A stretch of DNA of 64,000 nucleotides from an uncultured Candidatus Saccharibacteria bacterium (GTDB taxonomy: Bacteria; Patescibacteriota; Minisyncoccia; UBA6257): assembly GCA_964479005.1 (NCBI GenBank), contig CAYZJA010000001.1, positions 160,001 to 224,000 on the forward strand. Reading direction: 5' to 3'. Shown one piece after another: positions 11,245 to 11,421 of this stretch. Made by a program: the position numbers and the translations under genes. How positions within the stretch are numbered: the stretch's first letter is position 1; each line of letters starts with the position of its first letter. Below the pieces are notes generated by a model. That model saw only the letters and a list, made by a program, of their open reading frames with translations, had not been told where the DNA came from and made no database searches.

Positions 11245-11340
11245 AGTGAAAGTGCTTGTCCATAAATATTGACATTGTTTTCTAAATAAATTATATGTTA
11301 TAATAAATAAACAAAACTATGACTAATTCCATATCTTATC

Positions 11341-11389
11341 GAGAGAGAGAGAGAGAGAGAGAGAGAGAGAGAGAGAGAGAGAGAGAGAG
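11341..11389. repeat. (GA)24 dinucleotide microsatellite
   Basis: A perfect GAGAGA... run of 49 nt in the intergenic region between the two large surface-protein genes. Confidence 0.95.
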
Positions 11390-11394
11390 TAATC

Positions 11395-11421
11395 GCGGTT
11401 TTTCAGAAAAACCCTTTTTTT
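11395..11421 (+). terminator. rho-independent terminator-like hairpin
   Basis: GGTTTTT-cag-AAAAACC stem followed by a CTTTTTTT run. Confidence 0.55.

Follow-up and report, generated by a model that had tools for sequence, protein, structure and literature searches.

A perfect (GA)24 tract lies between two secreted-protein genes in the genome of a member of the Patescibacteria (Candidate Phyla Radiation, CPR), and we tentatively favor, at something short of an even chance, the reading that it is the hypermutable element of a phase-variable transcription attenuator acting in cis within the leader of the downstream gene, which encodes a 578-aa protein. Directly established are the tract, its leader position, an open reading frame (ORF) that crosses it with three possible frames, the hairpins behind it, its recurrence in distant relatives and length differences within a related clade. 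Across these elements a terminator or terminator-like hairpin stands 24–38 nt behind a TAA that adjoins the repeat and is followed by a surface-protein gene, and because this layout is that of the pil1 pilus locus of Streptococcus gallolyticus we favor a pil1-like attenuator. The features of the locus are listed below, numbered from the first nucleotide of the window, which is the whole stretch of DNA analyzed (64,000 nucleotides).

7621–11244, plus strand: upstream gene, 1207-aa secreted protein (ORF and translation; JGI gene call)
11245–11265, plus strand: remnant of ancestral last codons (..SESxCP-stop), alignable to the 3′ ends of upstream genes in the sister loci L166–L172, L007 and L008
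11269–11274, plus strand: −35 box TTGACA, in the conserved promoter of the downstream gene
11296–11304, plus strand: extended −10 element TGtTATAAT, read from the sequence; sister species have TGATATAAT or TGATACAAT there
11319–11438, plus strand: putative leader ORF of 39 codons, MTNSISYR(ER)n..SNRGFSEKPFFCWFSL-stop (JGI pipeline gene call; frame analysis)
11341–11389, plus strand: (GA)24 plus G, a perfect homopurine mirror repeat whose purine strand is the sense strand
11390–11392, plus strand: TAA adjoining the tract, the leader-ORF stop at n = 23, 26 and so on (predicted OFF)
11397–11421, plus strand: hairpin 1, GGTTTTT-CAG-AAAAACC plus T7 (arms GGTTTTTC/GAAAAACC, a perfect 8-nt inverted repeat)
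11425–11468, plus strand: hairpin 2, 11-bp stem with 12-nt loop (stem 11425–11458), then CTTTTTTATTTG; the stronger terminator-like element
11507–13243, plus strand: downstream gene for a 578-aa protein that combines an N-terminal helix with a series of Ig/FN3-like beta-sandwich domains

The (GA)24 tract is genuine

Tandem Repeats Finder, run over the 64-kb window, reported a perfect period-2 array at 11341–11389 (24.5 copies, 100% matches). The window has a GC content of about 31%, its longest other dinucleotide repeat is (AT)6, and it holds no second long one. The array occupies part of the 262-nt gap that separates the two plus-strand genes, and the first-pass annotation was right to describe it as (GA)24 between genes for secreted or surface proteins; the same perfect array is found in every assembly that spans it. 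A perfect repeat of 49 nt is far beyond chance expectation, and it occupies a leader position at a surface gene, so that on both counts it resembles a simple sequence repeat (SSR) contingency locus.

Two JGI assemblies (3300028837 and 3300008516) carry identical (GA)24 tracts with both flanks present. In a third, 3300008517, the locus is divided over two contigs (L178 and L004), each of which contains the full 49-nt run, and L004 has sequence on both sides of it. Logan contigs from four runs (SRR3085435, SRR3091719, SRR3085585 and SRR3089646) also cover the locus; those of three of the four stop 27–29 nt into the tract, as follows from the k=31 graphs, and a contig from SRR3089646 (L006) has its left end at 11430, to the right of the tract. 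The tract interrupts two of the four JGI assemblies, and most short-read assemblies break at exactly this locus. Because the same tract is present in more than one JGI assembly, it is real and an assembly artefact is ruled out. The first-pass annotation had proposed comparing repeat lengths, and within the window species this yielded no variation: every spanning or abutting contig is compatible with n = 24, a constancy that rests on consensus assemblies, in which minor alleles are hidden, and on samples that possibly come from one study. The right flank AATCGCGGTTTTTCAGAAAAACCC had zero exact matches in a metagenome contig collection.

Some contig ends near the tract deserve separate mention. 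A contig of JGI 3300005782 (L003) and the SRR3089646 contig share a left end at 11430/11431, 41 nt to the right of the tract, and the left contig of 3300005782 (L182) stops within the tract, so that 11389–11430 is unassembled there. This break could reflect a coverage gap at hairpin 1 and its T-run, or a co-occurring leader variant. An invertible element was also considered from these contig ends, and no flanking inverted repeats were found; a coverage gap is the simpler reading, given that L182, which comes from the same sample as L003, has its end within the tract.

Repeats of other kinds occur elsewhere in the window. An imperfect heptanucleotide array, AACAAAT/AACAGAT in about 10 units, covers the 3′ end of secD and the secD-secF spacer (19296–19402) and is followed by ATTGTTA-type units, which have a similar counterpart array at 57088–57122. 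Tandem Repeats Finder also reported tandem duplications at 38129–38770 (340-nt unit, 1.9 copies, 84% matches) and 29079–29215 (72-nt unit, 1.9 copies).

The tract lies in the 5′ leader of an adhesin-like gene

The proteins of both flanking genes have N-terminal signal or anchor helices. The downstream 578-aa protein (AlphaFold model, pLDDT 75.9) found Foldseek matches among multi-Ig adhesins and similar proteins; its gene is the first of five further secreted-protein genes ahead of secDF, and its family has more than 250 homologues in Patescibacteria. The C-terminal ~300 aa of the upstream 1207-aa protein, encoded from 10330 on, match Laminin_G_3 (Pfam, E 9.6e-14) and, weakly, DUF2341. This C-terminal extension is missing in sister species, and directly behind its new stop the ..SESxCP-stop remnant persists as non-coding sequence; taken together, the two suggest that sequence was inserted or fused at this locus.

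To place the tract relative to transcription, genomic contexts were compared over graded homologues of the 578-aa protein. Eight sister species (L166–L172, L007 and L008; 73–86% protein identity) have the same gene order, and in seven of the eight ATTGACAT is kept right behind the upstream stop codon. The −35 box TTGACA within the window begins at 11269, not at 11267 as had been given earlier, and the TGnTATAAT-like element annotated at 11296–11304 is there, as TGtTATAAT. Sister −10 elements read TGATATAAT, TGATACAAT or TAAACT, and in L166 the promoter was called by the scan as TTGACA-17-TAAACT. The consensus promoter scan did not call the window's own TTGACA/TGtTATAAT; here the spacing from TTGACA to TATAAT is 24 nt, which is too far, and that to TATATG (11292–11297) is 17 nt. 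Transcription would start near 11311, approximately 8 nt ahead of the leader ATG.

Since the promoter is common to the sister species, the window promoter is best taken as the downstream gene's own, which, as judged from this comparison, places the tract within the 5′ leader of the 578-aa protein gene. In the sisters the leader, from promoter to start codon, spans only about 100–155 nt and has no tract, so that the window leader differs from all eight by the tract plus about 130 extra nt. A scan of two of these sister leaders, L166 and L170, called no terminator on the plus strand.

A putative leader ORF contains the tract and two hairpins follow it

The first-pass annotation had proposed a rho-independent terminator at 11397–11421. 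A hairpin followed by seven T residues is indeed present there, but it is weak (dG −4.3 kcal/mol, z −0.46 versus shuffles) and was not called by the terminator scan. Directly behind it, the stem-loop at 11425–11458 has a dG of −13.2 and a z of −3.9, and escaped the scan on account of its 12-nt loop; its TTTTTTATTTG tail is also found on the terminators of two related loci, L132 and L175. Both window hairpins are thus imperfect terminators, and hairpin 1 fares no better than shuffled sequence.

The 39-codon leader ORF, which the first-pass annotation overlooked, encloses the entire tract, and the repeat unit of 2 nt is indivisible by 3, so the stop that a ribosome meets depends on n. At n = 23 or 26 the ORF ends at 11390, 32 nt ahead of hairpin 2. 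At n = 24 or 27 its stop lies at 11436, and at n = 22 or 25 at 11443; both positions are within hairpin 2 and beyond hairpin 1. The ORF, with its start codon, accordingly holds the whole of a non-triplet repeat, as in pil1, and in the window as well as in the related loci L061 and L132 one frame is short and the others run into or beyond the terminator. By prediction, an intrinsic terminator stands between the leader ORF and the gene. Open frames that reach the terminator are not rarer than in shuffled sequence (P = 0.5–0.8 per element), and for this reason the ORF geometry is compatible with the attenuator model and is not evidence for it.

No Shine-Dalgarno sequence precedes the leader ORF, whose A/T-rich start context is like that of the genes of this window, where a Shine-Dalgarno-like motif stands before only about 5 of 44 long ORFs. 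A clear GGAGGTG was seen only before 38939 and 41221, the other gene starts of the window being A/T-rich. A protein search with a profile of leader-peptide frame variants returned only unrelated, mostly eukaryote-like ER-repeat ORFs and missed the peptide's own sequence, and exact look-up of ten variants (n = 18–31, the n = 24 form included) in a protein collection returned none.

GA tracts recur at the same kind of site in distant lineages

To ask how unusual such tracts are, we surveyed the surroundings of this gene family in 1.27 Mb of Patescibacteria DNA, made up of the window and the retrieved loci less copies from the window species. Dinucleotide repeats of at least 6 units amounted to one (AT)6 and GA tracts in three lineages only: the window (24 units), L061 (27) and L132 (17). 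In all three the tract lies on the sense strand upstream of a homologous gene, at 118 nt (window), 121 nt (L061) or 377 nt (L132) from the start codon, and is followed by G-TAA, with the junction GAGAG-TAA common to the three. The homologous proteins are 35% identical for L061, with its (GA)27, and 40% identical for L132, with its (AG)17.

The surroundings of the tract are also alike. Ahead of it, L061 has an extended −10 element (TGgTAAAAT) and L132 has TTGACA-18-TATTAT with a TG upstream. Both loci have an ORF that begins with ATG and extends into the tract, with G-TAA next and a strong, scan-called intrinsic terminator after it; in L061 a weak A/U hairpin analogous to hairpin 1 stands ahead of that terminator. 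At n = 17 the L132 leader ORF is in its short-peptide state, and at n = 27 that of L061 has its stop in the 5′ arm of the terminator. In fact, an ATG-started ORF crosses the purine tract in five of five lineages (window, L061, L132, L175 and L183).

Within the clade of L132, tract length is variable, with approximately 3, 5, 17 and at least 19 units. For example, L173 and L174, which possibly derive from the same raw data, encode a protein 100% identical to that of L132 and have an identical right flank, and their contigs start with 38 nt of AG, giving at least 19 units versus 17 in L132. The proposed comparison of repeat lengths therefore did reveal variation in this related element. Alignable leaders have (AG)5 at the matching place in L183 and only GAGAGAAAGGA in L175 and L176. 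The tract-less orthologue L175 contains a 45-aa ORF that reads through its terminator, and this ORF and the read-through frame of L132 have LLVNFSNL[VI]L[KR]Q in common, with two synonymous and two conservative changes, which lends weak support to a coding leader frame.

Not every relative has the full arrangement. Between terminator and gene, L132 and L175 contain a decayed paralogue fragment of about 290 nt. In L183 the tract and upstream ORF are present and the terminator is absent; the stop of the upstream ORF overlaps the ATG of the next gene (ATGA), which suggests translational coupling there. The paralogue fragment and the lack of a terminator in L183 indicate that the attenuator layout is not universal.

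Short motifs suggest that the window and L132 elements are homologous. TAATTCCATA ends 7 nt ahead of the tract in both (a 10-mer with a chance expectation of about five occurrences in 2.5 Mb), and G-TAA and TTTTTTATTTG are likewise common to the two. Local alignment of the window with L132/L175 gave P = 0.002–0.03, and that with L061 was not significant. Searches (tblastn and blastn) with leader peptides and flanks against 182 loci returned nothing beyond L132, L173–L176 and L061. We also considered TAATTCCATA as a degenerate form of a general promoter-associated TTATCCACA, and TTATCCACA is not enriched in the window (22 occurrences versus 18.7 expected).

The neighborhoods of these loci show further features. 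In L061, positions 250–600 contain an 88-aa ORF for a GIY-YIG nuclease (Pfam E 6e-15) that separates two tandem paralogues and closely precedes the (GA)27 leader. The inverted repeat TTATCCACCCCGTTAGAC / GTCTAACGGGGTTATCCAC flanks this ORF, which resembles a small mobile insertion. In L132, a 22-nt direct repeat, AATGAARATGAAAATATTAAAA (21/22 identical; 2525–2546 and 2687–2708), surrounds (AG)17 plus the terminator, and both copies resemble the start of an upstream paralogue that is intact in L183 (ATGAATATGAAAATT); this paralogue is down to a 3′ fragment in L132, which implies a rearrangement at that locus. In L183, positions 1–640 hold two tandem units of about 190 nt upstream of the surface-protein cluster, each with a TTTTCCA(C/T)AG motif, a 19-aa ORF (MNNLKTTKIIPLLISCRRC, MKKLNSHNNTPFLFCLGDN) and a terminator-like hairpin. 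In L175, positions 1–2600, directly upstream of the surface-protein cluster, carry type IV pilus-related genes (PilM_2 and two N_methyl prepilin-type proteins).

A model for phase-variable attenuation

In the attenuator that we favor, the conserved promoter, with its −35 at 11269 and its extended −10 at 11296–11304, would start transcription, and translation from the ATG at 11319 would read (GA)n as (Glu-Arg)n. Slipped-strand mispairing would alter n by whole GA units, each step shifting the downstream frame. At n = 23 or 26 the ribosome would stop at 11390, 32 nt short of the 11425–11458 hairpin, which would then form and terminate most transcripts (OFF), leaving a short transcript of about 110–160 nt as a by-product. 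At n = 24, the sequenced form, and at 22, 25 or 27, the ORF would pass hairpin 1 and stop in hairpin 2 (11436 or 11443); a ribosome terminating there would cover the hairpin, polymerase would read through, and the surface-protein gene would be expressed (ON). Use of the promoter, translation of the leader ORF, termination efficiency, the effect of the ribosome and the slippage rate are what we infer in this scheme.

The closest known system is pil1, whose architecture was established by experiment and has 22 GCAGA repeats inside a leader peptide of 38 aa (Danne et al. 2014, PMC3894217). The short form of that peptide stops 39 bp ahead of a terminator and the long forms end in or after it; with the longer leader peptide, the ribosome covers the premature terminator and the pilus genes are transcribed (PMC3894217). 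The likeness extends to a promoter followed by a short leader ORF that holds the whole non-triplet repeat (38 aa in pil1, 39 aa here), to one frame that ends short of the terminator (39 bp in pil1, 32 nt to hairpin 2 here), to remaining frames that stop within or after the terminator, and to downstream genes for surface adhesion structures. The present element differs in its dinucleotide unit, read as (Glu-Arg)n; in a leader ORF that has no recognizable ribosome-binding site, such sites being little used by this organism; and in having two tandem imperfect hairpins where pil1 has one strong terminator. Moreover, the host belongs to the Patescibacteria and that of pil1 is a Firmicute, and the two loci have no sequence homology.

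Attenuators of the trp and his type sense charged tRNA via regulatory codons and use alternative antiterminator pairing. With these the proposed system would have in common that formation of a downstream intrinsic terminator depends on where a ribosome stands along a short leader ORF; it differs in that the proposed input is a heritable SSR frameshift, and no antiterminator pairing was found.

Of the three roles that the first-pass annotation had offered for the tract, modulation of read-through into the downstream gene is the best supported, the tract lying between a conserved promoter and the start codon with terminator-like hairpins behind it. Its proposal that read-through would depend on tract length fares less well, the likelier variable being the frame (n mod 3) of the leader ORF. 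A 3′-UTR role is possible and is not needed. The earlier interpretation as a whole is thus partly supported.

Alternative explanations

If length rather than frame mattered, the tract could act as a brake, or rheostat, in which R-loops, H-DNA or triplexes block following polymerases, more so the longer it is. We consider this unlikely, and the same holds for a variant in which tract length alters the folding or processing of the 5′ UTR. Translation of the leader ORF would be unnecessary in such a scheme, and the locus has several suitable properties: a perfect homopurine mirror repeat, with the purine strand non-template, approximately 30 nt from the promoter and start, and an orientation that puts purines in the RNA in three of three lineages. 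G-rich, promoter-proximal, non-template homopurine tracts do block transcription in an orientation- and length-dependent manner (PMC5499740; H-DNA is reviewed in PMC11667243), and the present tract resembles them in its mirror symmetry, its strand and its nearness to the promoter. The published block, however, was obtained with T7 polymerase in vitro and G-rich tracts (PMC5499740), not with (GA)n and a bacterial polymerase; the effects described come from in vitro or plasmid systems, and no natural bacterial regulatory example was found in the literature.

The precedent for the folding variant is Haemophilus influenzae hmw1A, an adhesin gene whose 5′ UTR contains an (ATCTTTC)n repeat and whose expression declines gradually with repeat number (PMC12721329). 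There a long hairpin, cleaved by RNase III, arises when the repeats base-pair with a G-rich arm, and adhesin expression is tuned by a transcribed 5′-UTR SSR (PMC12721329). The position is alike, a transcribed SSR in the 5′ leader of an adhesin gene between promoter and start codon, but here the repeat lies inside an ORF and is followed by terminators, and no complementary arm or stable fold was detected: the leader has no pyrimidine-rich segment with which the tract might pair into a long hairpin, and the fold of the whole leader is no better than shuffles (z = +0.5). Either form of brake also leaves unexplained the TAA right behind the tract in three of three lineages, and the terminators.

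A second account, and again an improbable one, is neutral or nearly neutral expansion of a purine-rich seed such as the GAGAGAAAGGA of L175, perhaps under weak mismatch repair, with the ORF and hairpins incidental. Several results are in keeping with it: the closest relatives do well without a tract, related leaders (L175 and L183) carry a short seed, tract length is constant in the assemblies of the window species, and the ORF layout is statistically ordinary. The main objection is that 17–27 perfect units occur in three separate lineages that agree in the kind of site, the strand and the adjoining gene family. In addition, no other long dinucleotide repeat is present in the 1.27 Mb of related DNA, G-TAA stands behind the tract in three of three lineages, and perfect bacterial SSR tracts of this length decay fast without selection, all of which count against neutrality.

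The short transcript suggested by the first-pass annotation is expected in any case, since an RNA of about 110–160 nt would accumulate in the OFF state of the attenuator. That it is instead the product of an independent small RNA gene, whose (GA)n body works in trans, for instance as a sponge for a protein that binds purine repeats or through base-pairing to pyrimidine-rich targets, is very unlikely. A promoter-like element and terminator-like hairpins do bracket the tract in the window, L061 and L132. However, the promoter is the downstream gene's own in sister species, L183 has a tract without a terminator, no stable or conserved fold was detected, and no additional copies were found in the window or the 182 loci. 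Neither conservation independent of the downstream gene nor membership of a known family was found: at the gathering threshold Rfam gave no match at the locus, and at E ≤ 10 it gave a single chance match (10 bits, E 7.1, minus strand).

Least credible of all is a spacing or phasing effect of the tract on a second promoter-like site (TTAATA-18-TAAAAT, 11469–11498; a 9/12 match, 9 nt ahead of the start codon), modeled on the vlhA genes of Mycoplasma gallisepticum, which likewise have a purine-rich SSR, (GAA)n, by surface genes in a reduced, low-GC genome and whose promoters have these variable repeats upstream of the transcription start (PMC6258824), for here the tract lies downstream of the conserved promoter, its end is 80 nt upstream of the TTAATA −35 with two hairpins between, the distances from tract to start codon are disparate in the three lineages, and promoter-like hexamers are no commoner than in shuffles (2 found, 4.0 expected).

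Implications for surface variation in Patescibacteria

The genomes of Patescibacteria are very small, and these uncultivated bacteria probably live attached to the cells of hosts. To our knowledge, almost nothing is known of how their surface proteins are regulated. SSR phase variation, and its leader-peptide/terminator variant, are already known; the attenuator that we favor would add a new phylum, a dinucleotide unit translated as (Glu-Arg)n and recurrence over distant lineages. A full-text literature search did not find "dinucleotide repeat" together with Patescibacteria, and among the matches listed for phase variation or simple sequence repeats the Candidate Phyla Radiation was unmentioned. 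If the model is correct, this would be the first phase-variation system described in Patescibacteria and only the second example of the pil1 type, and a mechanism so far described at one Streptococcus pilus locus would then be found, with another repeat, in a distant phylum.

A broader reading is that CPR bacteria of the episymbiont type possess genuine contingency loci, in which a (Glu-Arg)n leader peptide and ribosome-dependent anti-termination control adhesin-like operons in at least three lineages, the switch having been retained, exchanged or re-evolved in these distant groups. We regard this larger claim as conceivable yet doubtful. The value of n mod 3 is a marker that is readable in existing metagenomic reads and can be paired with metatranscriptomes, which makes the hypothesis testable without cultivation. 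Were it to hold, these bacteria would practice bet-hedging with their surface structures, as pathogens do, for instance with regard to phages, host recognition or competition.
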